Assembly (NCBI RefSeq): GCF_003019035.1
Contig: NZ_CP027447.1
DNA: 64,000 nucleotides
Reading direction: 5' to 3' (one strand)
DNA from: Escherichia coli
Lineage (GTDB): Bacteria > Pseudomonadota > Gammaproteobacteria > Enterobacterales > Enterobacteriaceae
The position numbers and the translations under genes were made by a program. The stretch's first letter is position 1, and every line of letters starts with the position of its first letter. The notes under the pieces were generated by a model. It made no database searches. It was not told the origin of the DNA and saw nothing but the letters and a program-made list of their open reading frames with translations. Positions 1 through 35,095 of this stretch are shown piece by piece.

Positions 1-564
1 GAACGAGCAAAGCAGGCACAAGTTCCAAAGCATGTTATTGATAAAGCAATTGATAAAGCCAAAGGCGGCGGAGATGAAACGTTCGTGCAGGGCCGTTATG
101 AAGGCTTTGGTCCTAATGGCTCAATGATTATCGCCGAGACCTTGACTTCAAATGTTAACCGTACGATTGCTAACGTTCGCACAATTTTCAATAAAAAAGG
201 CGGCAATATCGGAGCGGCAGGTTCTGTCAGCTATATGTTTGACAATACGGGTGTGATTGTATTTAAAGGAACAGACCCTGACCATATTTTTGAAATTTTA
301 CTTGAAGCTGAAGTTGATGTTCGTGATGTGACTGAAGAAGAAGGTAACATTGTTATTTATACCGAACCTACTGACCTTCATAAAGGAATCGCGGCTCTAA
401 AAGCAGCTGGAATCACTGAGTTCTCAACAACAGAATTAGAAATGATTGCTCAATCTGAAGTTGAGCTTTCCCCAGAAGATTTAGAAATCTTTGAAGGGCT
501 TGTTGATGCCCTTGAAGATGACGACGATGTACAAAAAGTTTATCATAACGTCGCAAATCTCTAA
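1..564 (+). CDS. yeeN: YebC/PmpR-family transcriptional regulator YeeN, 3' part (5' end lies before window start)
   Basis: Frame 1 is open from base 1 to the stop at 562-564; translation (…[33 protein letters not shown]…VYHNVANL) matches my memory of E. coli YeeN; conserved position upstream of asnW. Confidence 0.85.
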
Positions 565-576
565 TTATATTTTAAA

Positions 577-606
577 GAAATCTGTCTTTATGGCAGATTT
601 CTTTAA
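577..606 (+). terminator. Candidate rho-independent terminator after yeeN
   Basis: Inverted repeat gaaatctg…cagatttc followed by tttaatc just after the yeeN stop codon. Confidence 0.45.
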
Positions 607-910
607 TCTCATATGATTATTATAAAAATATAATGTTCAACTCGTCATATTGATTATAAAAAACCCCCATTCCCAGAGAAATAATATTTATTAAAATTCC
701 AGTTCTTCTTTTTCTGATTACAGAAGGAAAAGTGGCAATTACGCATAGTTTCCCGATAAAGACGCGATAGCGACATCCCGCATAAGGCATTTTTTCTTTA
801 TCTTTGTACGGTACTTCACGGAACGAAGTTTTTGACCCTGCGAATCGTGATGTCTGTTGGGGGGGCAATTTGCTCAATGAAGCATGAGACTCGATTAAGC
901 GCACGAAACA

Positions 911-953
911 CAGAAATCAAAAAACCCGGTCACTTTTTACAAGGTAACCGGGT
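911..953 (-). terminator. Candidate terminator downstream of asnW
   Basis: Stem acccggt…accgggt; on the minus strand it is followed by a T-tract (complement of aaaaa at 919-923). Confidence 0.4.
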
Positions 954-1014
954 AAAAATATTTTTTATTTTTTAACTGTCTTGAGACTCATAGAGATGTC
1001 TCAAGACTAAAATT

Positions 1015-1090
1015 TGGCTCCTCTGACTGGACTCGAACCAGTGACATACGGATTAACAGTCCGCCGTTCTACCGACTGAACTACAGAGGA
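1015..1090 (-). tRNA. asnW: tRNA-Asn (anticodon GUU)
   Basis: Reverse complement is tcctctgtagttcagtcggtagaacggcggactgttaatccgtatgtcactggttcgagtccagtcagaggagcca, identical to the two plus-strand copies; 76 nt with 3' CCA. Confidence 0.93.
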
Positions 1091-1190
1091 ATCGTGAGAA
1101 CGAGGCGAATATTAGCGACGCTCATCCACAATGTCAAAGCCTGTTTTTTAAATTTGAAATCGTTTGCTGAAATAATCTGCACTTTGTCGT

Positions 1191-2678
1191 TTATTCCGAC
1201 ACAACTGGCTTTTTTTCACACTTTTGCGGCTCAGGTCGAGGATATTTCCACAGCCAACGTCCAGTAACCATTCGCCAGTAAAACAGCACGGCCCGCACAG
1301 CCCAGTCGGCAAACATTCCCAACCAGACACCAACCACACCCCAGCCAAGCATGATTCCCAGCACATAACCGACTACAACCCGGCAACCCCACATGCTCAA
1401 CATAGAAACCCACATGGCGTAACGGGCATCACGAGCACCTTTAAATCCAGCGGGTAGCACCCATGAGGCGGACCAAATAGGCATAAATAAAGCATTTAGC
1501 CAAATCAGAATCACAACGACATGTTTAACCTGTGGATCCTGGGTGTAAAACGATGCCATAACCCCGGCAAAGGGAGCCGTTAGCCAGGCGATGGCCGTTA
1601 ATCCAAGAGTGGACAGCCAGAACACATGCCGCAACTGAATCTCTGCTTGCGCTATCTGCCCTACCCCCAACCTTCGGCCTGTAATGATCGTAGAAGCAGA
1701 GCCGAGCGCACTTCCGGGTAAGTTGATAAGAGCCGCAATTGAAAACGCGATAAAATTTCCGGCAATAACGCTGGTCCCCATCCCGGCAACGAACATTTGG
1801 GTTAATAACCGACCACTGGTAAATAACACTGATTCGACACTCGCTGGAATACCAATCCCCATGACTTCCCAGATAATGCTAAAATTCAGCGGTTTAAAAT
1901 AGCTCTTTAACGAAATCCTTAGCGCAGGATTAAAACCAATCGCCAGCACCCACAAAATTGCCACTGCGCCAATATAACGAGAAATGGTTAAACCCAACCC
2001 AGCCCCGACAAATCCCAGTCCCGGCCAGGAGAAAAGGCCGTAAATCAATATGCCGCTAATAATAATATTAAGAATATTCAGGCTACCGTTAATCAGTAGC
2101 GGTATTTTCGTATTCCCTGCACCACGAAGTGCCCCGCTACCAATCAAAGTGATGGCAGCTGCTGGATAACTGAGTACCGTCAGCTCCAGATAAGTCAACG
2201 CCAGTGCTTTAACTTCTGTCGTGGCATCACCCGCGACGAAATCAATAATTTGTTCGCCAAAATGATGAATAAGCGTTGCCAACAGTACGGCAAACAACGT
2301 CATGATCACCAATGACTGCCGCGTCGCCACCCTCGCTCGTCGTCGATCCCGCTTACCGAGACTAAATGCCACAACGACAGTAGTACCAAGATCGATAGCA
2401 GCAAAAAAAGCCATAATGACCATATTGAAGCTGTCCGCCAATCCCACGCCGGCCATCGCATCTTTTCCCAGCCAGCTGACCAGAAAAGTGCTCAGGACAC
2501 CCATCAACAGGACACAGGCGTTCTCCATGAAGATAGGAACAGCAAGCGGGGTTATCTCGCGCCAGAACAACACTTTGTAACTCTTGCGTTTGGCGTGCCA
2601 GCGAGTACCGTGAACAACCTGGCGTAAAGCAGAGGAGATATTCAAAGCCGACCTTAATTGCAGAAAGTGAAACCACAT
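1191..2678 (-). CDS. yeeO: MATE-family efflux transporter YeeO
   Basis: The 546-aa ORF (1191..2831) is multi-TM and MATE-like; the start is placed at the internal Met (MWFHFLQ…) to give the ~495-aa length I recall for K-12 YeeO. Start codon is uncertain. Confidence 0.8.
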   Translation of the reverse strand: MWFHFLQLRSALNISSALRQVVHGTRWHAKRKSYKVLFWREITPLAVPIFMENACVLLMGVLSTFLVSWLGKDAMAGVGLADSFNMVIMAFFAAIDLGTTVVVAFSLGKRDRRRARVATRQSLVIMTLFAVLLATLIHHFGEQIIDFVAGDATTEVKALALTYLELTVLSYPAAAITLIGSGALRGAGNTKIPLLINGSLNILNIIISGILIYGLFSWPGLGFVGAGLGLTISRYIGAVAILWVLAIGFNPALRISLKSYFKPLNFSIIWEVMGIGIPASVESVLFTSGRLLTQMFVAGMGTSVIAGNFIAFSIAALINLPGSALGSASTIITGRRLGVGQIAQAEIQLRHVFWLSTLGLTAIAWLTAPFAGVMASFYTQDPQVKHVVVILIWLNALFMPIWSASWVLPAGFKGARDARYAMWVSMLSMWGCRVVVGYVLGIMLGWGVVGVWLGMFADWAVRAVLFYWRMVTGRWLWKYPRPEPQKCEKKPVVSE

Positions 2679-2838
2679 TTCAAATGATGAGGGAGAATTA
2701 GCAAAGCTGCAAAGATTTTCGCCAACAAATTGTCTGCAAATGCAACAAACTGTTGATAGAAACGGCAAACAGTTGGTAAATTTAAAAATCGGGTTTGACA
2801 AAAGATTTTTCGCCGTTAAGATGTGCCTCAACAGCGAT

Positions 2839-2914
2839 TCCTCTGTAGTTCAGTCGGTAGAACGGCGGACTGTTAATCCGTATGTCACTGGTTCGAGTCC
2901 AGTCAGAGGAGCCA
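2839..2914 (+). tRNA. asnU: tRNA-Asn (GUU)
   Basis: 76-nt sequence tcctctgtagttcag…ccagtcagaggagcca read directly; K-12-like position between yeeO and cbl. Confidence 0.93.
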
Positions 2915-2922
2915 GATTTCTG

Positions 2923-2950
2923 AAAAGCCCGCTTTTATAGCGGGCTTTTT
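2923..2950. terminator. Bidirectional rho-independent terminator (asnU / cbl)
   Basis: Hairpin aaagcccgc-ttttat-agcgggcttt flanked by T-tracts on both strands. Confidence 0.6.
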
Positions 2951-2951
2951 G

Positions 2952-3902
2952 CTATATCTGATAATCAATTTCCTCTTCACTGTTCTCCATCACCTGGCGC
3001 TTGATATCCTCAACTGACAGTCCTGCATTACAAAGTTCCAGAAAGCGCCAGACATAGTTACGTTGAAGTTGCCCTCGCTTCAGTCCCATCCAGACAGTAT
3101 TAGCATCGAAAAGATGCCTCGTATCCAGACGGATTAAATTCTTTTCCTCTTGTTCACCACTGGATTGTTCGGCAACTAATCCGATCCCCAGCCCAAGAGC
3201 AACATAGGTTTTAATGACATCAGAATCCTGCGCACTTAATACAATATCTGCCAGCAAACCTTTGCGGACAAATGCGTCATCAATACGTGAGCGCCCCGTA
3301 ATCCCCTGTCGGTAAGTGATTAACGGCCACTTCGCTATTGATTCCAGCGTCAACGGTGTAATTTGCGTCAAGGGATGATCGAGTGGAACAAGCAAACTAT
3401 GGTGCCAGCGAAACCACGGGAAGGCGGCGAGCTGCGGGTCATTACTCAAACGCTCGCTGGCGATACCAATATCAGCTTCGCCATTTTGCAACAACGTCGC
3501 AATTTCCTGTGGTGTACCCTGGATTAGCTCCAGCCGAACCTCCGGGAAAAGTTCGCGAAAAGCTTTAATGACCTCAGGCAAGCTATAACGTGCCTGAGTA
3601 TGCGTCGTTGCAATAGTGAGAACGCCAGACGTATCGTTGGTAAACAGGTCTGCAAGCCGACGAACATTACTGGCTTCATTAAGAATGCGTTCTGCAATGA
3701 CCAGTAATGCTTTGCCCGGTTCAGTCATGCCCAGCAGTCGCTTACCTCGTCGAACAAATATTTCGATGCCAAGTTCATCCTCCAGTTCCCGAATATGACG
3801 GCTGACGCCTGACTGTGAGGTAAAAAGCATATTCGCAACCTCTGTCAGGTTGTAATCCTGACGTGCAGCCTCGCGGATTATCTTTAGTTGTTGGAAATTC
3901 AC
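2952..3902 (-). CDS. cbl: LysR-family regulator Cbl (sulfur-starvation / cysB-like)
   Basis: 316-aa ORF with N-terminal LysR helix-turn-helix (MNFQQLKIIREAARQDYNLTEVANMLFTSQSGVSRHIRELE…); immediately downstream of nac, as in E. coli. Confidence 0.88.
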   Translation of the reverse strand: MNFQQLKIIREAARQDYNLTEVANMLFTSQSGVSRHIRELEDELGIEIFVRRGKRLLGMTEPGKALLVIAERILNEASNVRRLADLFTNDTSGVLTIATTHTQARYSLPEVIKAFRELFPEVRLELIQGTPQEIATLLQNGEADIGIASERLSNDPQLAAFPWFRWHHSLLVPLDHPLTQITPLTLESIAKWPLITYRQGITGRSRIDDAFVRKGLLADIVLSAQDSDVIKTYVALGLGIGLVAEQSSGEQEEKNLIRLDTRHLFDANTVWMGLKRGQLQRNYVWRFLELCNAGLSVEDIKRQVMENSEEEIDYQI

Positions 3903-4003
3903 GGTAAACTCCGGGCAGTTCAGATTTCCCGTTATTGTTAAAGTCTAATGCCCGGCATAACAAATAATAAAAACCCGCATCTTATTCCATCCCGATATAA
4001 CGC

Positions 4004-4921
4004 TTAGCTCACCAATTGCCACTGCCTTTTTTCCATCACTGGAGAATTAATCACTGACATTAACAACTCTTTCACTGCCTGTGCCTGTGGCGATAAGTTC
4101 GCTCTGGCGGGTAAATTTAATGACAAAGAGAGACTCATGGAAGGAGTGGTAATGCGTGACATCCACCCATTTACTGCGCCACATAACGAACGCGCGGCCG
4201 ATTCGGGTAATACTGCAACGCCCATGCCGCTGGCAATCGCTGCGGTAAGCGTGGCAATAGACTCAATTTCACCAATGACTTTTGCCGTGAGCCGCCGTAG
4301 GGAAAAAGCCTCATCAACACGAAGTCTAACAGCACTGTAATCACTGGGGAGAAAGAGGTTCATTTGCGCAATAGCATTAACATCAACGCTTTGCCCCGGG
4401 CAATCTTGAGTTCCTACCAGGAAAAGATCTTCTTTCAGCAAAGCCTGGCTGGATACACCAGCCACAGGGGAATGCTCATAAATCACCGCCATATCGAGTT
4501 GATGATTTATCAGTTTTTCGTTAAGTACTGCACCGCTATTTTCATGAAGATAGATAACGACCTCCGGGAATTCAGCGCGAACCGCCTGTAATAAGGGCAT
4601 GGTGATGGATGACGCAGCGGTTCCTGGCGCAAAGCCAATCGAGACTTGCCCCGATAATGCCTGACCAACGTTATGCACCGCCAGTTGGGCCTGCTCACAC
4701 TGACGTAAAATGGCCCGCGCATGGGTATAGAGAATTTTTCCGGCGTCAGTTGGCGTAACACCCCGTTTTGTGCGAATCAAAAGTTGTTGATTTAACTCAC
4801 CTTCCAGTGTGGCAACCTGCTGACTGAGCGCTGGTTGTGCGATATGCAATACTTCAGCAGCCTGGGTCAGGCTACCAATATCTACAATTTTTACGAAGTA
4901 TTTCAGGCGTCTGAAGTTCAT
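4004..4921 (-). CDS. nac: Nitrogen assimilation control protein Nac (LysR family)
   Basis: ORF 4004..4951; start set at MNFRRLKYFVKIVDIGSLTQAAEVLHIAQPALSQQ… (LysR HTH); sigma-54 promoter-like element upstream. Confidence 0.88.
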   Translation of the reverse strand: MNFRRLKYFVKIVDIGSLTQAAEVLHIAQPALSQQVATLEGELNQQLLIRTKRGVTPTDAGKILYTHARAILRQCEQAQLAVHNVGQALSGQVSIGFAPGTAASSITMPLLQAVRAEFPEVVIYLHENSGAVLNEKLINHQLDMAVIYEHSPVAGVSSQALLKEDLFLVGTQDCPGQSVDVNAIAQMNLFLPSDYSAVRLRVDEAFSLRRLTAKVIGEIESIATLTAAIASGMGVAVLPESAARSLCGAVNGWMSRITTPSMSLSLSLNLPARANLSPQAQAVKELLMSVINSPVMEKRQWQLVS

Positions 4922-4976
4922 GTTGCCTCCGGTTTTTAAGAATCGGCCCAAGTGCCGCCATTACTTACAACCAGAT

Positions 4977-4992
4977 TGCAAGATGCTTGCCA
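4977..4992 (-). promoter_or_regulatory. Sigma-54 (-24/-12) promoter element for nac
   Basis: Minus-strand sequence TGGCAAGCATCTTGCA fits TGGCAC-N5-TTGCW; lies about 55 nt upstream of the nac start codon. Confidence 0.6.
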
Positions 4993-5246
4993 GTTTTATT
5001 GTGGCGTTGATGTACAAGCTAACCAACTGTCAAATAAGAGATTATGATAGATTCGTCATTGGTTCTTTTTATCAGCAGTCGCGTTCCCCTGCCCCATAAA
5101 AGGAGGGTATGCACCACGATGGTTCATTACCAATAAGATTGAAATCTCACCGCTTTGTTGAAATAGACAGCAAACAAACAAAAAAATGCATTTCACCCTT
5201 TGACATCACCATGTACTGCCATTAATATGCGCCCCGTTCACACGAT

Positions 5247-5322
5247 TCCTCTGTAGTTCAGTCGGTAGAACGGCGGACTGTTAATCCGTATGTCACTGGT
5301 TCGAGTCCAGTCAGAGGAGCCA
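5247..5322 (+). tRNA. asnV: tRNA-Asn (GUU)
   Basis: Third identical 76-nt tRNA-Asn copy read directly from the sequence. Confidence 0.93.
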
Positions 5323-5327
5323 GATTC

Positions 5328-5357
5328 AAAAAAGCCTGCTTTCTAGCAGGCTTTTTG
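5328..5357. terminator. Bidirectional terminator (asnV / ldtA)
   Basis: Hairpin aaaagcctgc-tttct-agcaggctttt with flanking T-tracts on both strands. Confidence 0.55.
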
Positions 5358-5377
5358 CTTTCTAATTACCAACGCTC

Positions 5378-6310
5378 TTAAAACATCTGTCTTGAACCAG
5401 AACTAATTTGCACAGGCATTCCCGATCGACGTTGCAACGCAGCATTTGCGCGATTCACATCAACTTCTTGCCCGTTGATAAACGCCCGCAAAGATGGGGT
5501 TACCGGCAATGGCACTTTTCGGTCAGACTCATATTCTGCACGATTGCGCGACAGCGGCTCATGAACTTCCAGCCACTTTGATCCATCCGGTTCCGTTGTG
5601 TATTTCACTGGCTGATCAATAATTTGTACACGAGTACCTACAGGAACATTATCAAACAGATATTTGATATCGTCATTGCGCAGACGAATACAGCCCTGAC
5701 TTACCCGGAGCCCAATACCAAAATTGGCATTGGTACCGTGGATGGCATATAGCCTGCCAATATAAATCGCATACAGCCCCATGGGATTATCAGGCCCCGC
5801 AGGAACAAATGCGGGCAAACTCTCCCCTCGTTTCGCATATTCGCGCCGAGTGTTCGGCGTTGGCGTCCAGGTTGGAGCTTCTTGTTTACGTTCAACGGTA
5901 GTCACCCAGTTACGCGGGGTTTCTCGCCCAGCCTGACCGATACCTATAGGAAAGACTTCCACAGTATTACTGTCTGGTGGGTAGTAATAAAGACGCATCT
6001 CAGCGACGTTAACCACAATCCCTTTACGAACAGTGGCGGGCAAAATCAGTTGCTGCGGAATGGTGAGTTGCGAACCTGACTTCGGCAAGAAAACATCAGC
6101 GCCCGGATTCGCTTCCAGCATGTTACTTAACCCTTGCCCGTATTGTGCGGCAAAAGTCTCCAGCGGCTGGGTATTGTGATCAGGAACAGTTACAGTAAGT
6201 GACTGCCCCACTAAACGGCTACCCTCTGGAGGTAATGGATAAGTTACCGCCAGGCTAGTATGGCTGGCAAAAAGCAGAGCAAATGAGCAAAGAATATTTA
6301 CACGACGCAT
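5378..6310 (-). CDS. ldtA: L,D-transpeptidase (ErfK/LdtA, YkuD domain)
   Basis: 310/311-aa ORF with signal peptide ([21 protein letters not shown]) and YkuD-type catalytic region (…HGT…GCIRLRNDD…). Confidence 0.85.
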
Positions 6311-6374
6311 CATGTCCCTTTCCTAAGTCGCGAAAGCTATCCGTTAAGTATAGCTTTTATCAGACTTTTCGTTT

Positions 6375-7454
6375 TTAACTGTTCAAATCAGAAGTCGTAT
6401 TCCCCGGTAGAACAATATTACTGGCAGCAAGTTCGCCCATGTTGTTATATATCGCACAGGCAGCTTCGATGATGGGCATCGCCAGAGCTGCGCCACTCCC
6501 CTCACCTAAACGCATCTCCATATTGAGATAAGGCTCCAGCCCCAAATGCGACAGCGCAATACGCGCCCCTTTTTCTGCCGACAGGTGAGAAGGAATGAGA
6601 TACGGTTTGATCGCAGGAGACATCTGGCAGGCTGCGAGCGCAGCAGCATAAGAAAGAAATCCATCCAGCAACACGGGTAAACCGCAGGAAGCAGCGCCTA
6701 ACATCACGCCAGCCATTCCGACCAAATCAAATCCACCCACTTTTGCCAGAACATTAACGCCATCCTGCGGATTTGGCTGATTCAACGTAATCGCCCGGCG
6801 CACAACATCAATTTTATTAGCCAGTTTATCTGTCGGCAGGTTTGCGCCAATCCCAACCACTTCTTCAGGATCCCGGCCAGTGATTGTGCTGACTATTGCT
6901 GCTGCCGGTGTCGTGTTTGCCATCCCCAGTTCACCTACACCAAACAGCGTGACACCGTTTTTTGCCAGCTCCCGCGTATAACATATGACGTCCAAAAGCA
7001 ACTTTTCAGCCTGACGGCGACTCATTGCCGGAGCTGAAGCAATATTGCCGCTACCTCGTGCGACACGCATGTTGATAAGCCCGGGGATAGGCTCAGCAGT
7101 ATCAATACCAACATCAATTACGTGGACGTTAGCGCCCGCTTGTGCTGCCAGCACACACACGCCGGTTGTTCCGCGGGTCATATTTTCAGCCTGTATGGCT
7201 GTCACTTCTTTTGGAGAAATAGCGACCCCTTCCTCCCAGACGCCGTGATCGGCACACATAACCAGTATCGCTTTTTTGCCCACATGCGGTATGCCATTCA
7301 ACCCCGGCATTCCCGCCAGTTGTACGCCAAGCGCCTCCAGCTTTCCCAGGCTACCAACAGGTTTGAGTAACCCGTCAATATGCCGTTGTGCACGCGACAT
7401 AGCGGCAGGATCGATGGCTGGGATCGTATTCAGTAAATTGGCAAGTGTTTGCAT
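6375..7454 (-). CDS. cobT: Nicotinate-nucleotide--dimethylbenzimidazole phosphoribosyltransferase
   Basis: 359-aa ORF ([40 protein letters not shown]…), canonical CobT; first gene of the cobTSU order. Confidence 0.92.
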
Positions 7455-7465
7455 GTCACGTCTCT

Positions 7466-8209
7466 TTATAGCAGTGCCAGCAGGAAGACCAGTTCACCAA
7501 GCTCTATGGCTGCTCCCAGCGTATCGCCGGTTTGCCCGCCCAGCGTACGTTTGAGAAGCTGACCGAGGATGAAAATCGCCACCATCGTCACCACCATAGC
7601 AGCCACACCATGCATACCCGGCAATAATACGGCAGCAAAAATAGCGGCTAAGCCGAGTGTGACGCAGGTTTGTCGCCCATCAATTTTGCCAATGAACACA
7701 TTGCCAAGCCCTTCTTCCCGCGCATAACGATGACGATACATCAATAATGCGGCAGTCCCGCGGCTGACCGCACATGCTGCCGCCAGCGATGCAAGGATCG
7801 GTTCGCCACGCAGAGCCAACTCGCTTAACACCAGAATCTTTGCCAGTACCACAAAAATCAATGCCAGACCGCCGTGGGTGCCTAAACGGCTATCACGCAT
7901 GATTTCCAACATGCGATCGCGGCTACGTGCAGAAAATACGCCATCACAGGTATCAGCGAGGCCATCCAGGTGGAATCCCCCGGTCATCAGCGCCAGCACA
8001 AGTACGCTAAACAGTGCCGCCAGTGGTACGCCACACCATGCCTGCAGCACCATGAAGACCAGCCCGCTAATCGCGCCAAGCAATAATCCAATCAAAGGAA
8101 AAGTAATAATACCGCGAGAATAATGCTCGAAATCCAGTCCCTGGGACCAGCGACGCGGTACAGGCAGACGCGTAATAAATGAGAGCATCGCCCAAAATAA
8201 TTTACTCAT
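7466..8209 (-). CDS. cobS: Adenosylcobinamide-GDP ribazoletransferase (cobalamin synthase)
   Basis: Multi-TM ORF; start set at [18 protein letters not shown]… giving a 4-nt overlap with the cobU stop (translational coupling). Confidence 0.9.
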
Positions 8210-8884: not shown

Positions 8885-9391
8885 TTACGAAAGAAGATGG
8901 CATTGCGGAATAGCCAGACTTCCTCGTGTTAACGTCCGACAAAATGCGTCATTGACAGCGGTTTCTCTGGCATGACAGATTTCATTAAGATAATGGATTA
9001 ATGCTACAGCCCCACCCGCCGGACCATTCAGCAAACGGGCATTGTGTTCTGTAATCAAAATTACCGTCGTTCCCTCAGAATGAGCGAGCCATTCTGGTAC
9101 GGATATCTCGCTTTCAGCTGCTATCAATAGCAGCACTGAATAATCGCTATACGCATCTGATAACGATTGCACAGGCCCACCGTCAAAAGGCTGGAAATCT
9201 TGCTGCCAGTCCTCACCAACAAAACAGGTTATTGGCAATATTTCCGCCAGATGTTTCGCCAGATCCACATCTCCAGATAAGAGGCAAAAAAGAGCTATCG
9301 ATTCGGGTTTTATCGTTTTCATGCCCCTCGCCCTCCACTTAATTTCCTGTAATGGCGGTCTGGTTGATAAGCCATGAAACAAGATTGCCAC
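8885..9391 (-). CDS. Hypothetical protein (145-168 aa) at the position of the missing cbi operon; function unknown
   Basis: Open frame between the riboswitch-like leader and cobU. GTG start at 9391, or ATG (MKTIKPESIALF…) with a GGAGG-like RBS at about 9322. I do not recognise a family; may be a remnant or fusion. Confidence 0.35.
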   Translation of the reverse strand: MAILFHGLSTRPPLQEIKWRARGMKTIKPESIALFCLLSGDVDLAKHLAEILPITCFVGEDWQQDFQPFDGGPVQSLSDAYSDYSVLLLIAAESEISVPEWLAHSEGTTVILITEHNARLLNGPAGGAVALIHYLNEICHARETAVNDAFCRTLTRGSLAIPQCHLLS

Positions 9392-9539
9392 ACCTTAAGT
9401 GCAGCCCTGGTGCCTGTCGGCACTGCGATGAAAGAACTAAATGATGCCGCCATACCCTGATCCTTTCAGGGTGGTAGGGGTATAAAGACGCGCCTGTACT
9501 CTACCGGACGCTTCCGGGCAACCCACTTCCCACCGAAGT

Positions 9540-9705
9540 TGTTGGTATTGACTGACTGGCTGGTCTTCTGGCTTAGCGTCATCCTCTCCCGACCTTCCCA
9601 ATCTCGCGATCAGTGGCATTTTCGGGTTTGTCAGCATTACAGCAGCGGGGGCTGCGAGGGATTTTCACCCTCTTCCCAGGCACAAATGTGCCACACCTGT
9701 CAGCG
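9540..9705 (-). ncRNA. Cobalamin (adenosylcobalamin) riboswitch, cob-operon leader type
   Basis: Minus-strand RNA contains GGGAAGAGGGUGAAAAUCCCUCGCAGCCCCCGCUGCUGUAA (fits the cobalamin core GGGAA…GGUG.AA..CC…GC.G.CCCGC…GU.A), then GCCACUG, then a B12-box AAGCCAGAAGACCAGCC (compare btuB AAGCCCGAAGACCUGCC). Confidence 0.7.
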
Positions 9706-9806
9706 TATGTTATGAGCTGATTTCACTTTTCCCATAACAGGGAAATAACGTTAATTATTCATTCCAGAGTTTATTTAAACCGTCCTCTTTTTTTGGGGCA
9801 TTTACT

Positions 9807-10721
9807 CTATACCGTTTCCATCGCCGCATTATCACTCACTTGCTGTCGATACACCTGCGGCGTAACCTGATAAGTCTGACGGAAAACTTTGCAAAAATAA
9901 CTTGTTTGCGAAAAACCTAAATTACGCGCAATGCTGGCGATGCTCCAGTCACTATGGCACAGTAACTCACGAGCGCTGGCCATCCGTTGTTGGTTTACCC
10001 ACGCATTAAACCCGATTCCATGGTATTTCTTAAATAACTTACTGAAATAATAAGGGCTTAGATAAACGTGCGAGGCGACATCTTCCAGACGCAAATCGTC
10101 TGATAAATGCGCATCAATATAACGTAAAGCTTTTTTCATTTTATTGTCGTGGGGACCAGGCGCACGAGTCTGGCGCAACGAATCTGACTGAGATTTGTTC
10201 TCTTTAATAACCACAAAATTGAGTTGTTTTTTTAGGCAATTTTCTACAATCAACTTCAACAAATCCGCAGAGGCCATAACTCTTGAGTAATCCATCTCAG
10301 GGACTTTGCGAAATTCATTAAGTAATTCGGGATCTGCCTGCCAGCAATCATCGACATTCAGAATATCGACCAAATCGACATCATCATTACGCAGACGAAC
10401 TTGCCCGCACAATACAAAACCAACTAAATGTCCGGCGATTACCAGTGGAATAGAGAAATCGGTTAATCCGGCATGACAGCGATAAATACAAGGCTGATCG
10501 GATTTAGAGGCTTCCAGGCCCCCACAACGATCGCTCATGCGACATCGAGTGCTTAGCTGAGGGTGTTGCCGCATCATCTGACAAAATGGAGTGAAGTTAA
10601 ACAGCTCGGAAATTTCATCGCCGTGAATATTGACCACGACAACCGCAAGGCTGGTCGCCTGCGCAAAATCCTGCGCGATTTTATTAATGAGTTCTGAATT
10701 AAGTGTCGCCGCAGAAATCAT
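9807..10721 (-). CDS. pocR: AraC-family regulator PocR (activator of pdu/cob in response to 1,2-propanediol)
   Basis: 304-aa ORF with C-terminal AraC HTH (…IASIARNLGFSQTSYFCKVFRQTYQVTPQVYRQ…); sits between the cob leader and pduF as in Salmonella. Confidence 0.88.
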   Translation of the reverse strand: MISAATLNSELINKIAQDFAQATSLAVVVVNIHGDEISELFNFTPFCQMMRQHPQLSTRCRMSDRCGGLEASKSDQPCIYRCHAGLTDFSIPLVIAGHLVGFVLCGQVRLRNDDVDLVDILNVDDCWQADPELLNEFRKVPEMDYSRVMASADLLKLIVENCLKKQLNFVVIKENKSQSDSLRQTRAPGPHDNKMKKALRYIDAHLSDDLRLEDVASHVYLSPYYFSKLFKKYHGIGFNAWVNQQRMASARELLCHSDWSIASIARNLGFSQTSYFCKVFRQTYQVTPQVYRQQVSDNAAMETV

Positions 10722-10923
10722 GATAAAACCTCCCAGTTAATTTATTGTTATAGCAAAACAATTGTTTTACATTTAATCTTCACATCATCCTTGATGATTT
10801 ACTGACGAGAAGCACAAAGGACAATAACAAAAGCCTCCGTGAAGCGGGAGACTTTTTAATAAGTTCGGAAAGCAGATCACAAACAGTAAAAAAATAAACG
10901 TTTATAACTGCCAGATTATTTCG

Positions 10924-11733
10924 TTATTCGCTGATTTCTTTAGGCGTTACACTATTGACAGGTAAATTCTTTGCAATGAGATAGCGATAAATCGCCGCAC
11001 CAACACATGCCCCAATGATCGGTGCAATAATGGGTACAATGAAATAAGGAATATTGCGTCCACCAGTCATCGCAATTTCCCCCCAACCCGCAAACCAGGT
11101 GAAAATTTTAGGTCCAAAATCACGCGCTGGATTCATGGCAAAACCGGTTAATGGTCCGGTAGAAGCACCAATAACAGCAACCAGAATACCAATGAGTAAA
11201 GGCGCAAGCGGTCCTTTGGGTACGCCATTACCGTCATCGGTCAACGCCATAATCAACCCCATTAACATGGACGTTATGACCACTTCGACCAACGCAGCTT
11301 GCCATACATTAATCGCCGCTGCTGGATAAGTACTGAAGATACTGGCGAGTTGTAAACTTTCTGCGCTACCACGCACTATATTGTGAGCCGATTCAAAATC
11401 GGTAAACAAACTGCTGTAGAGAGAATATGCCAGAACCGCACCACCAAAGGCACCCGCTAATTGCGCCACACAAAATGGCAGCACTTTACGGGCTGGGAAA
11501 GAGGCAAACAGCCACAGAGCAATGGTAACTGCCGGGTTGAGATGAGCGCCGGAAATACCTGCCGTAAGGTAAACAGCAAGCGAAATCCCTAACCCCCATA
11601 TGATACAAATTTCCCACAGTCCCAGACTTGCCCCGGCAACTTTCAGGGCGCACAAACAACCAATGCCAAAAAAGAGGAACAGTCCGGTGCCCAAAAACTC
11701 GGCAACGCATTGCGCCTTGAGTGAATCATTCAT
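10924..11733 (-). CDS. pduF: Propanediol diffusion facilitator (MIP/aquaglyceroporin family)
   Basis: MIP-family ORF with NPA motif (…GAHLNPAVT…); start set at MNDSLKAQ…; divergent from pduA. Confidence 0.88.
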   Translation of the reverse strand: MNDSLKAQCVAEFLGTGLFLFFGIGCLCALKVAGASLGLWEICIIWGLGISLAVYLTAGISGAHLNPAVTIALWLFASFPARKVLPFCVAQLAGAFGGAVLAYSLYSSLFTDFESAHNIVRGSAESLQLASIFSTYPAAAINVWQAALVEVVITSMLMGLIMALTDDGNGVPKGPLAPLLIGILVAVIGASTGPLTGFAMNPARDFGPKIFTWFAGWGEIAMTGGRNIPYFIVPIIAPIIGACVGAAIYRYLIAKNLPVNSVTPKEISE

Positions 11734-12244
11734 AGTGACACCTTCTTTACGGAGTTTTTCTTTATCAGCCAACTATGCGCTGATTGTTGTGTATACCGAG
11801 CGCAACTATAAAAAATTGCTCTGCAGAAAATATTGCCAACATGCATGACAGACTCGTGTAAAAATCGTGCTAACATAACAAATTATTGTCATTGCCGAAT
11901 CATGCAACACAGCGTTAATCAGTGTTGAAAGTAATAATTCCCACCAAACTTTTACAGTAAAAAATTGCCATCATGACATAATAAAATTGAAACAAATATC
12001 ACAGTTCCTTCCTCGAACCAAACTCAACGAAATATTACTCGCGATTAAACTCACTAGACAACGCAATTAATTCACATTGAAACATCCACAAAATAACCAA
12101 TAAATTAATAACATATAGTTCATAAAAGCAATTTTATAATATTTGTTCTCTATTAATTTTTCTCATTAGCCGATTAAGTCAGCCATTCTTTTTCCTCGCT
12201 TTTTTTTATAGTCATATCGTCAAAAAAATCCAGGCGAGGTCTTT
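11734..12244. promoter_or_regulatory. Divergent pduF / pduA control region
   Basis: About 510-bp AT-rich intergenic region between divergently oriented pduF and pduA; by analogy with Salmonella it should carry PocR-dependent promoters. Individual sites not identified. Confidence 0.5.
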
Positions 12245-12529
12245 ATGCAACAAGAAGCGTTAGGAATGGTAGAAACCAAAGGCTTAACTGCCGCCATAGA
12301 GGCCGCGGACGCCATGGTGAAGTCGGCAAATGTTTTGCTGGTCGGCTACGAAAAAATAGGTTCCGGGCTGGTGACCGTCATCGTTCGTGGTGATGTCGGG
12401 GCGGTAAAAGCGGCAACAGACGCAGGTGCCGCAGCTGCGCGTAACGTCGGCGAAGTAAAAGCCGTGCACATTATTCCCCGCCCACATACCGATGTCGAAA
12501 AAATCTTACCAAAGGGAATTAACCCATGA
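12245..12529 (+). CDS. pduA: Bacterial microcompartment shell protein PduA (BMC-H)
   Basis: 94-aa BMC-domain protein ([30 protein letters not shown]…). Confidence 0.93.
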
Positions 12530-13338
12530 GCAGCAATGAACTGGTCGAACAGATCATGGCGCAGGTCATCGCTCGCGTAGCGACGCCAGAGTATGAGGTT
12601 CTCCCGAAAACCACTCATCAAATACGAGAGACGGCTATGGCAGAAAAAAGCTGCACGTTAACAGAATTTGTTGGCACCGCTATTGGCGACACTGTAGGTC
12701 TGGTCATTGCGAACGTTGATAGCGCCCTGTTGGACGCAATGAAACTTGAAAAACGCTATCGTTCCATTGGCATTCTGGGTGCGCGTATTGGCGCAGGTCC
12801 ACACATTATGGCCGCTGATGAAGCGGTAAAAGCCACCAACACTGAAGTTATTAGCATTGAACTTCCTCGCGATACTAAAGGCGGTGCCGGACACGGCTCA
12901 TTGATCCTCTTAGGTGGCAACGATGTTTCCGACGTGAAACGCGGTATTGAAGTTGCCCTGAAAGAACTCGATCGAACCTTTGGCGATGTCTATGCCAACG
13001 AAGCCGGACATCTTGAGCTGCAATATACCGCCCGCGCCAGCTATGCACTGGAAAAAGCGTTTGGTGCACCATTGGGACGGGCTTGCGGCGTTATTGTCGG
13101 CGCTCCAGCCGCTGTGGGTGTTCTGATGGCCGACACCGCGCTGAAGTCCGCCAATGTGGATGTCGTGGCATACAGCTCCCCCGCTCAAGGCACCAGCTAC
13201 AGCAACGAAGTCATTCTGATTATCTCGGGTGACTCCGGCGCGGTCCGCCAGGCGGTCATCTCCGCACGCGAAATCGGTAAAACCGTGCTTTCGACTCTCG
13301 GCGATACACCGAAAAACGATCGCCCTTCCTACATCTGA
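12526..13338 (+). CDS. pduB: Microcompartment shell protein PduB (tandem BMC)
   Basis: 270-aa ORF overlapping the pduA stop; tandem-BMC-like sequence. Confidence 0.9.
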
Positions 13339-13356
13339 ATTCTCTGAGGCAGATTT

Positions 13357-15021
13357 ATGAGATCGAAAAGATTTGAAGCACTGGCAAAACGCCCGGTCAA
13401 CCAGGACGGTTTCGTTAAAGAGTGGATTGAAGAAGGCTTCATTGCGATGGAAAGCCCGAACGATCCTAAACCGTCAATCAAAATTGTTAACGGCGTCGTT
13501 ACCGAACTGGATGGAAAACCCGCCAGTCAGTTTGACCTGATCGACCACTTTATCGCCCGCTACGGCATCAATCTCGCGCGCGCAGAAGAAGTCATCGCGA
13601 TGGATTCGGTAAAACTTGCCAATATGTTGTGCGATCCAAATGTCAAACGTAGCGATATCGTTCCCCTTACCACAGCAATGACGCCTGCAAAAATCGTCGA
13701 AGTGGTTTCGCAGATGAACGTGGTAGAGATGATGATGGCGATGCAGAAAATGCGCGCCCGTCGAACACCATCACAACAGGCTCACGTCACCAACATCAAA
13801 GATAACCCGGTACAAATTGCCGCCGACGCAGCTGAAGGCGCATGGCGCGGGTTTGATGAACAGGAAACCACCGTTGCCGTTGCTCGCTATGCACCGTTCA
13901 ACGCCATCGCCCTGCTGGTCGGCTCACAGGTGGGACGTCCGGGCGTCTTGACCCAGTGTTCACTGGAAGAAGCCACCGAACTGAAACTCGGTATGTTAGG
14001 CCACACCTGTTACGCCGAAACAATTTCTGTCTATGGTACAGAACCTGTTTTCACCGATGGCGATGATACCCCGTGGTCAAAAGGATTTCTCGCGTCATCC
14101 TATGCGTCTCGCGGCTTAAAAATGCGCTTTACTTCCGGCTCCGGCTCTGAAGTACAGATGGGTTACGCGGAAGGCAAATCAATGCTTTATCTCGAGGCTC
14201 GATGCATTTACATCACCAAAGCCGCAGGCGTTCAGGGTCTGCAGAATGGTTCGGTAAGCTGCATCGGTGTTCCATCAGCTGTGCCATCAGGCATCCGCGC
14301 AGTATTAGCGGAAAACTTAATTTGCTCATCGCTGGATCTGGAATGCGCCTCCAGTAATGACCAGACCTTTACCCACTCGGATATGCGCCGTACCGCACGT
14401 TTCCTGATGCAATTTCTGCCAGGTACCGACTTTATCTCTTCCGGTTTTTCCGCTGTGCCGAACTACGACAACATGTTTGCTGGTTCAAACGAAGATGCTG
14501 AAGACTTCGATGATTACAACGTCATTCAGCGTGACCTGAAGGTTGATGGCGGGCTGCGACCAGTACGCGAAGAAGATGTTATCGCAATCCGCAATAAAGC
14601 CGCTCGCGCTTTACAGGCTGTCTTTGCCGGTATGGGACTACCGCCAATTACCGATGAAGAAGTCGAAGCGGCAACCTATGCCCACGGTTCGAAAGATATG
14701 CCTGAGCGCAATATTGTGGAAGACATCAAGTTCGCCCAGGAGATTATCAATAAAAACCGTAACAGCCTGGAAGTGGTGAAAGCCCTGGCGCAAGGCGGTT
14801 TTACCGATGTCGCCCAGGACATGCTCAACATGCAAAAAGCAAAACTGACCGGCGATTATCTCCATACCTCAGCCATCATCGTCGATGACGGACAAGTGCT
14901 CTCAGCGGTCAATGACATCAATGATTACGCAGGGCCAGCTACAGGTTACCGCCTGCAAGGGGAACGCTGGGAAGAGATCAAAAATATTCCCGGTGCACTT
15001 GATCCCAACGAAATTGACTAA
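13357..15021 (+). CDS. pduC: B12-dependent propanediol dehydratase, large subunit
   Basis: 554-aa ORF (MRSKRFEALAKRPVNQDGFVKEWIEEGFIAMESPNDPKPSIKIV…), canonical PduC. Confidence 0.94.
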   Translation: MRSKRFEALAKRPVNQDGFVKEWIEEGFIAMESPNDPKPSIKIVNGVVTELDGKPASQFDLIDHFIARYGINLARAEEVIAMDSVKLANMLCDPNVKRSDIVPLTTAMTPAKIVEVVSQMNVVEMMMAMQKMRARRTPSQQAHVTNIKDNPVQIAADAAEGAWRGFDEQETTVAVARYAPFNAIALLVGSQVGRPGVLTQCSLEEATELKLGMLGHTCYAETISVYGTEPVFTDGDDTPWSKGFLASSYASRGLKMRFTSGSGSEVQMGYAEGKSMLYLEARCIYITKAAGVQGLQNGSVSCIGVPSAVPSGIRAVLAENLICSSLDLECASSNDQTFTHSDMRRTARFLMQFLPGTDFISSGFSAVPNYDNMFAGSNEDAEDFDDYNVIQRDLKVDGGLRPVREEDVIAIRNKAARALQAVFAGMGLPPITDEEVEAATYAHGSKDMPERNIVEDIKFAQEIINKNRNSLEVVKALAQGGFTDVAQDMLNMQKAKLTGDYLHTSAIIVDDGQVLSAVNDINDYAGPATGYRLQGERWEEIKNIPGALDPNEID

Positions 15022-15030
15022 GGGTGAGAA

Positions 15031-15699
15031 ATGGAAATTAACGAAAAATTACTGCGTCAGATTATCGAAGGCGTGCTGGCAGAAATGCAAACCAGCGACA
15101 AGTCCGTTTCATTTCGTGCACCTGTCTCTGCAACTGTCTCTTCAGTGCCAGATACCGGAAATTTTCTGACCGAAATTGGCGAAGCCCAACAAGGCACTCA
15201 GCAAGATGAAGTCATTATTGCTGTAGGCCCGGCGTTCGGCCTGGCGCAAACCGTCAATATCATCGGTATTCCGCATAAAAACATTTTGCGCGAAGTGATT
15301 GCCGGTATCGAAGAAGAAGGCATTAAAGCCCGTGTGATTCGCTGCTTTAAATCGTCCGATGTCGCATTCGTAGCAGTCGAAGGAGATCGTCTTAGTGGTT
15401 CAGGTATTGCTATCGGTATTCAGTCGAAAGGCACAACGGTTATCCACCAGCAGGGACTTCCTCCCTTGTCTAACCTGGAACTTTTCCCACAAGCGCCTTT
15501 GTTGACGCTGGATACTTATCGTCAGATTGGCAAAAACGCCGCGCGTTATGCGAAGCGCGAGTCTCCACAACCGGTGCCGACCCTCAACGATCAAATGGCA
15601 CGACCGAAATACCAGGCCAAATCTGCCATTTTGCATATTAAAGAGACGAAGTACGTGGTCACTGGCAAAAAACCGCAAGAACTGCGCGTGACGTTTTAA
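15031..15699 (+). CDS. pduD: Propanediol dehydratase, medium subunit
   Basis: 222-aa ORF in the conserved pduCDE order. Confidence 0.92.
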
Positions 15700-15713
15700 C
15701 AAAGGAAACCTTC

Positions 15714-16232
15714 ATGAATACCGATGCAATTGAGTCGATGGTCAGGGACGTGTTGAACCGCATGAACAGTTTACAGGATGCAGCTCCTGTTTCTGCGGTC
15801 CCCAGCGCGTCAATACAGAGCGCCAAAGTGACGGATTACCCGCTGGCAAATAAACATCCGGAATGGGTTAAAACAGCAACCAATAAAACGCTCGACGATT
15901 TCACTCTGGAAAATGTGCTAAGCGATAACGTCACCGCCCAGGATATGCGCATTACCCCTGAAACATTGCGTATTCAGGCTGCGATTGCCAGAGATGCTGG
16001 TCGCGATCGCCTGGCGATGAATTTCGAACGCGCCGCTGAGCTTACCTCAGTACCGGATGATCGCATCCTCGAAATCTACAATGCGTTACGCCCTTATCGT
16101 TCGACTAAGCAAGAACTTATTGCCATTGCTGACGATCTTGAACGGCGTTATCAGGCCAAAATTTGTGCTGCATTTGTCCGTGAAGCTGCGGAACTTTATG
16201 TCGAGCGCAAAAAACTGAAAGGCGACGATTAA
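15714..16232 (+). CDS. pduE: Propanediol dehydratase, small subunit
   Basis: 172-aa ORF in the conserved pduCDE order. Confidence 0.92.
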   Translation: MNTDAIESMVRDVLNRMNSLQDAAPVSAVPSASIQSAKVTDYPLANKHPEWVKTATNKTLDDFTLENVLSDNVTAQDMRITPETLRIQAAIARDAGRDRLAMNFERAAELTSVPDDRILEIYNALRPYRSTKQELIAIADDLERRYQAKICAAFVREAAELYVERKKLKGDD

Positions 16233-16241
16233 GGACGAACT

Positions 16242-18074: not shown

Positions 18075-18414
18075 AGAGCGTGCACCAGCCATCGTTGTCA
18101 TGGAGATCGGTGACTGTATCACTACATGGGATGAAGTGCTTCTTGGCATTGAAGAGGAAGGTATTCCCTTTCGCATTCAACACATTCCGTCAGGTGAAGT
18201 TATCGATAGCGCCTGGCTGGCGGCTCGTCAATCTCCCCTGTTGGTTGGCATTGCCTGCGATCAGGAAAAACTGATTGTGCATTACAAAAACTTACCGGCA
18301 TCAGCGCCACTGTTTACGCTGATGTATCAACAAGATAACCATGACAGGCGCAGCATCGGCACTAACGCTGCCCGCCTGGTAAAAGGAATTCCCTTCCGGG
18401 AACTCCACTCATAA
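18064..18414 (+). CDS. pduH: Diol dehydratase reactivase, small subunit
   Basis: 116-aa ORF overlapping the pduG 3' end. Confidence 0.88.
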
Positions 18415-18433
18415 TCCACAGGAGAAACGCAGT

Positions 18434-18709
18434 ATGAACAACGCACTAGGACTGGTTGAAACAAAAGGGTTAGTTGGCGCAATTGAAGCTGCAGATGCCA
18501 TGGTTAAATCCGCCAACGTGCAGCTGGTTGGCTATGAAAAGATTGGTTCGGGTCTGATTACGGTGATGGTCCGTGGCGATGTTGGCGCAGTAAAAGCCGC
18601 CGTTGATGCAGGAAGCGCCGCCGCAAGCGCCGTTGGCGAAGTGAAATCCTGCCATGTCATCCCGCGCCCACACAGTGATGTTGAGGCTATTTTACCTAAA
18701 TCAGCATAA
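18434..18709 (+). CDS. pduJ: Microcompartment shell protein PduJ (BMC-H)
   Basis: 91-aa BMC-domain protein, paralogue of PduA ([29 protein letters not shown]…). Confidence 0.92.
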
Positions 18710-18732
18710 CCCCATTCGCTAAGGAGCACAGC

Positions 18733-19155
18733 GTGAAGCAATCACTGGGATTACTTGAAGTCAGTGGTCTGGCACTCGCCATCAGTTGCGCAGATGCTAT
18801 GGCAAAAGCCGCGTCCATCACGCTGGTTGGCCTTGAGAAGACCAATGGCTCAGGCTGGACGCTCATCAAAATCACCGGTGACGTCGCCTCGGTTAATGCG
18901 GCGATCGCGACGGGAGCCAGTTTCGCCGGACAGCGAAATGGCCTCGTCGCACACAAAGTGATTGCCCGTCCGGGAGACGGCATTCTGCCCCACACAACTG
19001 AAGCATTGACTGTGACGGTTGAAACAAGCGAAACACCAGCAACAACCGTCATCTCAGAGATTATCAGTTGTAATTTGTGTCTTAACCCGGCATGTCAGCG
19101 GCAAAAAGGTGAGCCCCGCTCACTTTGCCTGCACGCCAATAAGCGAGGGGAGTAA
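18733..19155 (+). CDS. pduK: Microcompartment shell protein PduK (BMC with C-terminal extension)
   Basis: 140-aa ORF, BMC domain plus Cys-containing tail (…CNLCLNPACQRQKG…). Confidence 0.85.
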   Translation: MKQSLGLLEVSGLALAISCADAMAKAASITLVGLEKTNGSGWTLIKITGDVASVNAAIATGASFAGQRNGLVAHKVIARPGDGILPHTTEALTVTVETSETPATTVISEIISCNLCLNPACQRQKGEPRSLCLHANKRGE

Positions 19156-19157
19156 CA

Positions 19158-20278: not shown

Positions 20279-20281
20279 CCT

Positions 20282-20557: not shown

Positions 20558-20568
20558 GGAGCTGAAAG

Positions 20569-22958: not shown

Positions 22959-22968
22959 AGAAACGGAA

Positions 22969-25421: not shown

Positions 25422-25423
25422 CG

Positions 25424-26328: not shown

Positions 26329-26332
26329 CGTT

Positions 26333-35059: not shown

Positions 35060-35095
35060 AATAACCGACGCTGATGAAACGTCGGTTTTTAGTCA
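35060..35095 (-). terminator. Candidate terminator after yeeY
   Basis: Hairpin aaccgacg-ctgatgaaa-cgtcggtt; T-tract on the minus strand. Confidence 0.45.

Follow-up and report, generated by a model that had tools for sequence, protein, structure and literature searches.

The three identical tRNA-Asn genes asnW, asnU and asnV in a 64-kb stretch of the Escherichia coli chromosome (the window) are, with good confidence, both shared attachment sites for genomic islands and substrates for general homologous recombination. Because the copies are identical, they acquire these two side effects beyond their normal job. This reading draws on direct observations of the identity and anatomy of the genes, of the existence and frequency of rearranged junctions, and of islands in other genomes. 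The three copies are real but ordinary, a long-known island landing site and a documented substrate for small inversions, and the main value of the locus is as context for the nearby region. Inversion of the whole block, flipping within cultures and use by islands have already been published (PMC8209727, PMC8461471 and PMC6458436).

The window is 100% identical to E. coli strain SCU-301, and its gene content was taken from RefSeq record NZ_CP051751.1, which is annotated and has 100% identity to it. The annotated gene order is yeeN-asnW(-)-yeeO-asnU(+)-cbl-nac-asnV(+)-ldtA, in agreement with the gene names, orientations and flanked genes (yeeO; cbl-nac) of the original prediction, and the asnW-asnV block contains no annotated recombinase gene. 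E. coli K-12 has the same genes in the same order and orientation in its asnT/asnW/asnU/asnV region near 44 min, and the first 8 kb of the window align over their full length with K-12 derivatives at 97.6% (about 2.4% divergence). The window has this common K-12-type order, with all three island sites empty. The fourth tRNA-Asn gene, asnT, is outside the window, 24 kb upstream, and, unlike in K-12, bears a 12-kb RHS/integrase island in this strain; after cobU the strain carries the pdu operon, where 23CRST009 and AR145.2 have an IS/CP4-44-type region. asnW, asnU and asnV are three of the four chromosomal genes for tRNA-Asn(GUU); no other tRNA-Asn species is known to be recorded for E. coli K-12. 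PMC8209727 handles all four genes as a single family.

In the whole window ARAGORN detects three tRNA genes and no more, all of them tRNA-Asn with the anticodon gtt at position 34, and the RF00005 cloverleaf score of each copy (Table 1) compares with an Rfam gathering score of 29. Together with the alignment, these results confirm three genes that are identical at 76/76 positions within 4.3 kb, one of them inverted. The 3′ CCA is encoded in every copy, giving a tRNA of mature length. Homology extends beyond the genes to 84 nt at 100% identity between asnU and asnV (2835-2918/5243-5326), 85 nt at 99% between asnW and asnU (1010-1094/2835-2919) and 104 nt at 96% between asnW and asnV (1011-1114/5223-5326), the longest of the three. 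Thus asnW forms inverted repeats of homologous-exchange length with both asnU (85 nt) and asnV (104 nt). Promoter-like sites matching the sigma-70 consensus at 10 of 12 positions lie 17-19 nt upstream of each copy; their hexamers are conserved in an alignment of all four asn genes, and the -10 hexamer and leader of asnV are identical to those of asnT. The predicted asnU terminator is 77% identical to that of asnV. Promoters and terminators are assigned here by consensus match or by folding energy, and on that basis each copy looks like a self-contained transcription unit, with a promoter-like site, a mature-length tRNA and a terminator hairpin.

Table 1. Coordinates in the window of the tRNA-Asn genes, the genes between them and predicted flanking elements
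Feature	Position	Strand	Location or evidence
asnW, tRNA-Asn(GUU)	1015..1090	-	ARAGORN; Rfam RF00005 72.6 bits; 76/76 identical to other copies
asnU, tRNA-Asn(GUU)	2839..2914	+	ARAGORN; Rfam RF00005 72.6 bits; 76/76 identical to other copies
asnV, tRNA-Asn(GUU)	5247..5322	+	ARAGORN; Rfam RF00005 72.6 bits; 76/76 identical to other copies
yeeO, MATE efflux transporter	1191..2678	-	Between inverted pair asnW/asnU; RefSeq annotation and ORF list
cbl, LysR-type regulator	2952..3902	-	Between direct pair asnU/asnV; RefSeq annotation
nac, nitrogen assimilation control regulator (gltC in some papers)	4004..4921	-	Between asnU/asnV; RefSeq annotation
Predicted sigma-70-like promoter of asnW (TTGACA, 17-nt spacer, TAATAT)	1109..1137	-	Consensus scan, 10/12
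Predicted sigma-70-like promoter of asnU (TTGACA, 16-nt spacer, TAAGAT)	2795..2822	+	Consensus scan, 10/12; alignment
Predicted sigma-70-like promoter of asnV (TTGACA, 17-nt spacer, TAATAT)	5200..5228	+	Consensus scan, 10/12
asnW 3′ trailer, terminator-like: two strong hairpins with a T run after the second	925..1014	-	RNA fold -33.6 kcal/mol, z = -7.4
Predicted terminator hairpin of asnU; overlaps the stop codon of cbl	2923..2953	+	RNA fold -20.1 kcal/mol, z = -6.2
Predicted asnV terminator hairpin	5329..5356	+	Terminator scan; RNA fold -18.9 kcal/mol, z = -4.7
Possible island relic, 157 nt directly 3′ of asnW	858..1014		Homologous to tRNA-to-integrase leader of asn-tRNA islands

Junction queries of 1,076 nt (500 nt, the tRNA gene and 500 nt), both native and synthetic recombinant, were used to survey the arrangement across 5,426 complete E. 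coli genomes. Positions 1-8000 are collinear in 4,481 genomes, so that conservation of the arrangement in E. coli holds for about 83% of complete genomes and fails for the remainder; an intact native junction is present in 4,974 genomes for asnW, 5,176 for asnU and 4,664 for asnV. The predicted inversion of yeeO exists in nature: the junction of an asnW × asnU exchange (yeeN-tRNA-yeeO(5′)) is present in 34 genomes (0.6%), and the reciprocal junction in 32, namely 31 that have both and KL53, which carries a double rearrangement (double flip). The matches are single and full length. Islands and integrases are absent from both tRNAs in the yeeO-flipped genomes examined. The flipped genomes are not each other's nearest local relatives, the flank of TC24 differing at 17 sites from a native genome versus 58-73 sites from other flipped genomes. 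This local non-relatedness points to at least three separate events.

The commonest rearrangement is inversion of the entire 4.3-kb block, the left junction of an asnW × asnV exchange being present in 265 genomes (4.9%), a count of genomes rather than of events that could stem from one or a few ancestral B2 events. The original prediction named the inverted pair asnW/asnU correctly and overlooked asnW/asnV, the pair with the 104-nt homology and the 265 genomes. In all four block-inverted genomes opened for their flanks, the colibactin (pks) island adjoins the block. The inversion corresponds to the published asnW-asnU-asnV block inversion (CFT073/IHE3034 versus the UTI89/K-12 type), with the same repeats and the same 4.3-kb segment, of which the window has the non-inverted orientation. 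According to PMC8209727 and PMC8461471, a 4,309-bp block is inverted in pks-positive B2 strains, and PMC6458436 describes an asnW/asnV inversion that arises in UTI89 cultures, was validated by PCR and is independent of the Fim recombinases. The gene order in the window agrees with the 4,309-bp region of PMC8209727.

The direct pair asnU/asnV was expected to permit deletion of cbl-nac. The corresponding asnU-upstream/ldtA junction is present in 35 of the 5,426 genomes, all with the same junction identity (98.4%), which look like one clone. However, in the one examined, STEFF_1, cbl-nac has been relocated by about 45 kb to a position beside asnT, together with a T6SS island, and the genes are retained in 5,418 of the 5,426 genomes. 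Simple deletion of cbl-nac by asnU × asnV exchange was therefore rejected, although the junction itself exists. Eight genomes do not have cbl-nac; the two opened, WS4202 and FHI_NMBU_03, have much larger deletions in which asnU and asnV are both gone. In WS4202, an IS1203 cuts yeeJ. These counts (83% collinear, 4.9% block-inverted, 0.6% yeeO-flipped, cbl-nac almost never lost) are small additions to published work. Neither the yeeO-only flip, the double flip of KL53 nor the cbl-nac relocation of the STEFF_1 type was encountered in the literature searched.

These arrangements, seen as end products, can be rationalized by general homologous recombination, which would exchange copies over their 76-104 nt of identity. 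An asnW × asnU exchange would flip yeeO, an asnW × asnV exchange would flip the entire 4.3-kb block, and exchanges among direct copies could move cbl-nac. In enterobacterial chromosomes, homologous exchange between inverted identical repeats also produces the inversions that are bounded by rRNA operons or by IS copies; by comparison, the asn homology is much shorter (76-104 nt versus kilobases) and the segments are much smaller (1.7 and 4.3 kb). The predicted asnW and asnU promoters lie inside the invertible segment. With promoters inside and terminators outside the invertible segments, each inversion would rebuild full promoter-tRNA-terminator units, and the flips should therefore be close to neutral, as far as this anatomy indicates.

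It is improbable that the rearrangements are made by island tyrosine integrases acting on an att core in the tRNA 3′ ends rather than by homologous recombination between whole genes. The block inversion almost never occurs without an integrase-bearing island at its right junction, which leaves room for an integrase-assisted route: against the 265 genomes with the left junction, the matching right junction (asnW-upstream/ldtA) is island-free in SE15 alone, and the pks integrase is at the right junction in all four block-inverted genomes opened. SE15 itself was rejected as a clean island-free block inversion, since it has an additional partial copy of yeeO and a more complex structure. The T6SS island that accompanies the relocated cbl-nac in STEFF_1 also bears an integrase and has a tRNA 3′-end repeat at its boundary, and PMC8209727 suggests that the inversion went along with pks insertion. 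However, the yeeO-only inversions examined are free of islands and integrases at both junctions, and such island integrases depend on arm sites in attP and would not normally act on a pair of attB-type sites. A simpler path to the same structure is an asnW × asnV exchange in a strain that, like UTI89, already has pks at asnV (PMC8461471), and this exchange has been observed to arise in UTI89 cultures (PMC6458436). We infer that homologous recombination, and not an integrase, makes the inversions.

Two further readings attribute consequences to the rearrangements. That the four asn tRNA genes form a recurrent, reversible shuffling hub of a 30-kb region (yeeO flips, double flips, relocation of cbl-nac with the T6SS island), some states of which have selectable consequences, is doubtful; such consequences might concern how mobile the islands are, whether the middle tRNA gene is transcribed head-on or co-directionally, or how yeeO, cbl or nac is expressed. 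Still less probable is that the inversions are a selected switch that alters yeeO, cbl or nac expression or locks pks in place. Flips do recur, and published reports describe them as detectable within cultures (PMC6458436) and speculate that inversion stabilises pks (PMC8209727, PMC8461471). However, the genes move with their own upstream regions and, with tRNA promoters inside and terminators outside, promoter-gene junctions would be unchanged; the block has no recombinase gene of its own; the frequencies of 0.6% and 4.9% fit rare neutral events followed by clonal inheritance; and pks at the right-hand tRNA would keep attL and attR direct after the flip, so that excision is not blocked. Finally, some assemblies do break here, and an unplaced 5,969-bp linear contig carries cobU-ldtA-tRNA-nac-cbl-tRNA-yeeO, but assembly artefacts from the repeated tRNA sequence are a very improbable source of the variant arrangements, given that an ordinary sequencing read is longer than the repeats (76-104 nt), that both reciprocal junctions occur as single full-length matches in 31 genomes from many laboratories, that the flipped state is found on several distinct local sequence backgrounds, and that the asnW/asnV inversion was validated by PCR (PMC6458436).

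In terms of island attachment, the 3′ end of every copy constitutes the same attachment site for P4-type tyrosine-integrase islands, so that islands such as the HPI (high-pathogenicity island, yersiniabactin), pks or T6SS/RHS islands reside at any copy, depending on the strain. In the other genomes examined, integrase-bearing islands lie directly 3′ of each of asnW, asnU and asnV, and also of asnT: pks occurs next to asnW, the HPI next to asnV and next to asnT, and further integrase islands adjoin asnU and asnW. In STEFF_1, direct repeats of the 16-nt tRNA 3′ end (0-1 mismatch) mark the far ends of three islands. The HPI has been located at asnT or asnV (PMC7545054). The view of the repeats as recombination substrates and integration hot spots is thus borne out by junctions and islands in other genomes. 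In the window, the ORF list and the RefSeq annotation contain no integrase gene next to asnW, asnU or asnV, and all three sites are unoccupied, unlike the asn-tRNA sites of the HPI, pks and ICEEc1, for which the same tRNA-Asn 3′ end is the integration target. The 23-nt and 16-nt tRNA 3′ ends have no copies in the 64 kb beyond the three genes (at up to 3 and 2 mismatches, respectively), as had been noted from the sequence at the outset. Shuffled sequence gives about zero matches, so the matches at three places are not due to chance. With no extra 3′-end repeat, no part of the window, the pdu region included, can be regarded as having an asn att repeat at its boundary.

The presence of three empty attachment sites of identical sequence explains why neighbouring strains differ here by tens of kilobases of islands (such as pks, HPI, T6SS/RHS). 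Synteny breaks exactly at the asn tRNAs are an expected polymorphism in comparisons of E. coli genomes and not new biology, and the name given to the insertion site of an island (asnW versus asnV) depends on the orientation of the 4.3-kb block. One genome with the order RHS...integrase-asnW, Br_112_kylling, was considered as an asnT × asnW inversion. The synthetic mtfA-asnT-inverted-yeeN junction is present in ET5 alone of the 5,426 genomes, and Br_112_kylling is thus read simply as having an island at asnW. No evidence was found for plasmid-borne tRNA-Asn genes; among the 13-14 "plasmid" matches is the unplaced 5,969-bp contig, a mislabelled linear piece of chromosome.

Among the three sites, only the 157-nt stretch 3′ of asnW resembles an island end, and it is possibly an island relic. 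Neither an integrase nor a direct repeat is found at this flank (858..1014), and a 94-amino-acid ORF in the asnW flank (623-904) was rejected as an integrase remnant as it has no Pfam match. In blastn searches with the flank alone, the region aligns to island ends in A22 and STEFF_1 at 71-74% identity over 162-163 nt (E = 2e-15 and 2e-21).

The first 8 kb of the window are 100% identical to E. coli SCU-301 (NZ_CP051751.1), whose RefSeq order is yeeN, tRNA-Asn(-), yeeO(-), tRNA-Asn(+), cbl(-), nac(-), tRNA-Asn(+), ldtA, cobT, cobS, cobU. This is the asnW-asnU-asnV region of E. coli, given as 4,309 bp in PMC8209727. The fourth chromosomal copy, asnT, follows mtfA at a point 24 kb upstream of the window and has a 12-kb integrase/RHS island attached to it. 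In the window ARAGORN calls three tRNA genes and no more; all are tRNA-Asn with anticodon GTT. Each scores 72.6 bits against the Rfam tRNA model (threshold 29), and the three align with 76/76 identity, which confirms the predicted trio of identical genes at the coordinates given for it.

Features of the window
Feature	Coordinates	Strand	Source
tRNA-Asn asnW	1015-1090	-	ARAGORN
tRNA-Asn asnU	2839-2914	+	ARAGORN
tRNA-Asn asnV	5247-5322	+	ARAGORN
Flank directly 3' of asnW (157 nt)	858-1014		
pdu region directly after cobU	8885-26776		
Cobalamin riboswitch, pdu region	9541-9715		
Further matches: STnc230, STnc240, histidine operon leader, STnc490	10782-10865, 35054-35128, 37426-37549, 45250-45373		Rfam
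Low-G+C segment	48001-64000		

The identity extends slightly past the gene ends, over 84 nt at 100% for asnU/asnV, 85 nt at 99% for asnW/asnU, and 104 nt at 96% for asnW/asnV, the longest pair because the -10 hexamer and 5' leader are common to both. A consensus scan places a 10-of-12 sigma-70 match 17-19 nt upstream of each copy, RNA folding places a strong hairpin after each (z-scores -4.7 to -7.4), and the hairpins of asnU and asnV are related. The promoter-like hexamers are kept in all four asn genes, each of which, with a promoter-like site and a hairpin of its own, appears to be a separate single-gene transcription unit. The putative asnW and asnU promoters both fall within the asnW-asnU segment, and that of asnV likewise within the larger asnW-asnV segment, with the predicted terminators outside.

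We surveyed 5,426 complete E. coli genomes with 1,076-nt queries (500 nt + tRNA + 500 nt) for native and predicted recombinant junctions, counting a genome if a single match covered at least 80% of the query. The native asnW, asnU, and asnV junctions are intact in 4,974, 5,176, and 4,664 genomes, respectively. The arrangement had been described as conserved in E. coli, which is overstated: window positions 1-8000 are collinear in 4,481 of the 5,426 genomes but not in the rest. Identity to this interval reaches 99% in only two complete genomes and is at most 98.8% in all others, so the strain's lineage is sparsely sampled at this locus.

The proposed inversion of yeeO between asnW and asnU is observed, with its left junction (yeeN-tRNA-yeeO 5' end) in 34 genomes and the reciprocal junction in 32 (31 of the same genomes plus KL53). 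In 23CRST009, TC24, LD27-1, and Santai, yeeO is simply reversed between its two tRNAs, and neither an island nor an integrase lies close by. In local sequence these four are not one another's nearest kin: TC24 and the native-order genome C8 have 17 differing sites in the amn-yeeN flank, against 58-73 between TC24 and LD27-1 or Santai, and the closest relative of the LD27-1 yeeO is a native-order genome. This local unrelatedness points to a flip that arose, or reverted, at least three times. KL53 has the whole asnW-asnV block inverted and yeeO turned back; a type III restriction-modification island occupies its right-hand tRNA.

The set of recombining pairs originally predicted is incomplete, as it lacks asnW/asnV, the left inversion junction of which (yeeN-tRNA-nac) is present in 265 genomes. 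All four opened for their flanks (401656, DLL7555, Z0117EC0117, and Seattle 1946) read yeeN-tRNA(-)-nac-cbl-tRNA(-)-yeeO-tRNA(+)-integrase-clbS...clbA, and the island of 401656, whose far end was also fetched, ends at ldtA. This is the published configuration of typical B2 strains positive for pks, the colibactin island. According to PMC8461471, pks integrated at asnV and the yeeO-tRNA-cbl-gltC set (gltC being nac) then inverted. PMC6458436 describes asnW/asnV inversion arising in UTI89 cultures, confirmed by PCR.

Of the explanations for these rearrangements, ordinary homologous exchange over identical stretches of 76-104 nt has the best support; it accounts for the yeeO flips that lack an island, for the reciprocal junctions, and for flipping within cultures. 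An integrase-assisted route to the block inversion, which almost always lies beside an integrase-bearing island, seems improbable to us. Assembly error is unlikely, since sequencing reads are longer than the tRNA repeats and many independent assemblies contain both junctions. Each flip rebuilds complete predicted promoter-tRNA-terminator units and carries whole genes along with their upstream regions, so that flips are expected to be close to neutral.

Two further structures were noted at the block. In SE15 (NC_013654.1), nac-cbl-asnU-yeeO is inverted without any island and a second, partial yeeO copy adjoins the left-hand tRNA; one tRNA-gene exchange does not account for this structure. NZ_CP196293.1 (5,969 bp), labelled a plasmid, is a linear unplaced contig reading cobU-cobS-cobT-ldtA-tRNA-nac-cbl-tRNA-yeeO; such leftover contigs may reflect mixed block orientations in the sequenced culture.

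The predicted deletion of cbl-nac by direct-repeat exchange is overstated. The corresponding asnU-upstream/ldtA junction occurs in 35 genomes, all at 98.4% identity, which look like one lineage. In STEFF_1, ldtA directly follows asnU, and cbl-nac is retained ~45 kb away, between a type VI secretion (T6SS) island starting at asnT and a second integrase island, with every boundary marked either by tRNA-Asn itself or by a 16-nt copy of the gene's 3' end. In this region (NZ_CP048609.1, 2,915,000-3,007,500), cbl-nac and a tRNA-Asn gene lie between the ~45-kb T6SS island and an integrase/RHS island; the first genes of both islands encode a similar integrase and a RelE/ParE toxin, and copies of IS3 are nearby. 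The structure suggests that an island was excised and re-inserted together with flanking chromosomal genes. A tRNA-free cbl-nac query gives some match in 5,418 genomes (5,409 at ≥80% cover), leaving only 8 that lack it wholly. The two of these opened, WS4202 and FHI_NMBU_03, carry far larger deletions with asnT as the sole remaining tRNA-Asn gene, so that one copy appears to be enough for viability; in WS4202, IS1203 cuts yeeJ. On this evidence, no surviving genotype shows simple asnU x asnV loss. An mtfA-asnT-inverted-yeeN junction and an asnW-upstream/ldtA junction without an island occur in one genome each.

That these tRNA genes are integration hot spots is borne out. After subtraction of rearrangements, the native junction is broken in at most ~150 (asnW), ~180 (asnU), and ~460 (asnV) genomes. 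These figures are upper bounds, as coverage can also fall below 80% through flank divergence or IS insertions. Every such genome opened has an island that begins, immediately 3' of the tRNA, with a tyrosine integrase, including an RHS island at asnW and islands at asnU in AR145.2 and A22. C8 (NZ_CP010125.1) carries the yersiniabactin high-pathogenicity island (HPI) with an integrase at asnV, not the usual asnT. These islands agree with the literature (PMC8209727 and PMC7545054), where asnT or asnV is given as the HPI site and asnU, asnV, or asnW as that of pks. All three sites in the window are empty, and the suggested search for att-like repeats of the tRNA 3' end elsewhere in it returned none with 2-3 mismatches allowed (shuffles gave approximately zero matches). 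The flank directly 3' of asnW has 71-74% identity (E = 2e-15 and 2e-21) to the stretch from tRNA-Asn to the integrase start codon in the A22 and STEFF_1 islands; it contains no integrase or direct repeat and may represent the decayed end of an island, one that most E. coli have fixed.

The locus is a member of a family already described in full, namely the asn tRNA genes of E. coli with their attachment-site role and asnW-asnV inversion. The finding is genuine and was correctly read in outline; beyond giving context for neighboring islands, its interest is low. Our literature search, as far as it reached, turned up no mention of how frequent or recurrent the yeeO-only flip is, of the double flip in KL53, or of the cbl-nac plus T6SS relocation; these points are minor.

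Elsewhere in the window, pocR, pduF, and the full pdu (propanediol microcompartment) operon are kept directly after cobU, where 23CRST009 and AR145.2 have IS elements and 23CRST009 also CP4-44-type genes; the 3'-end search of the window found no asn att repeat bounding this region. Across positions 1-64000, none of the eight 8-kb bins has a + strand GC skew above zero (0.000 to -0.122). Should the + strand be the lagging one, transcription of asnU and asnV would be head-on to replication and only asnW co-directional, unusual for tRNA genes, and the middle copy would turn co-directional in block-inverted strains. G+C drops to 35-41% over the final 16 kb, which may be the nearby island mentioned in the original prediction.
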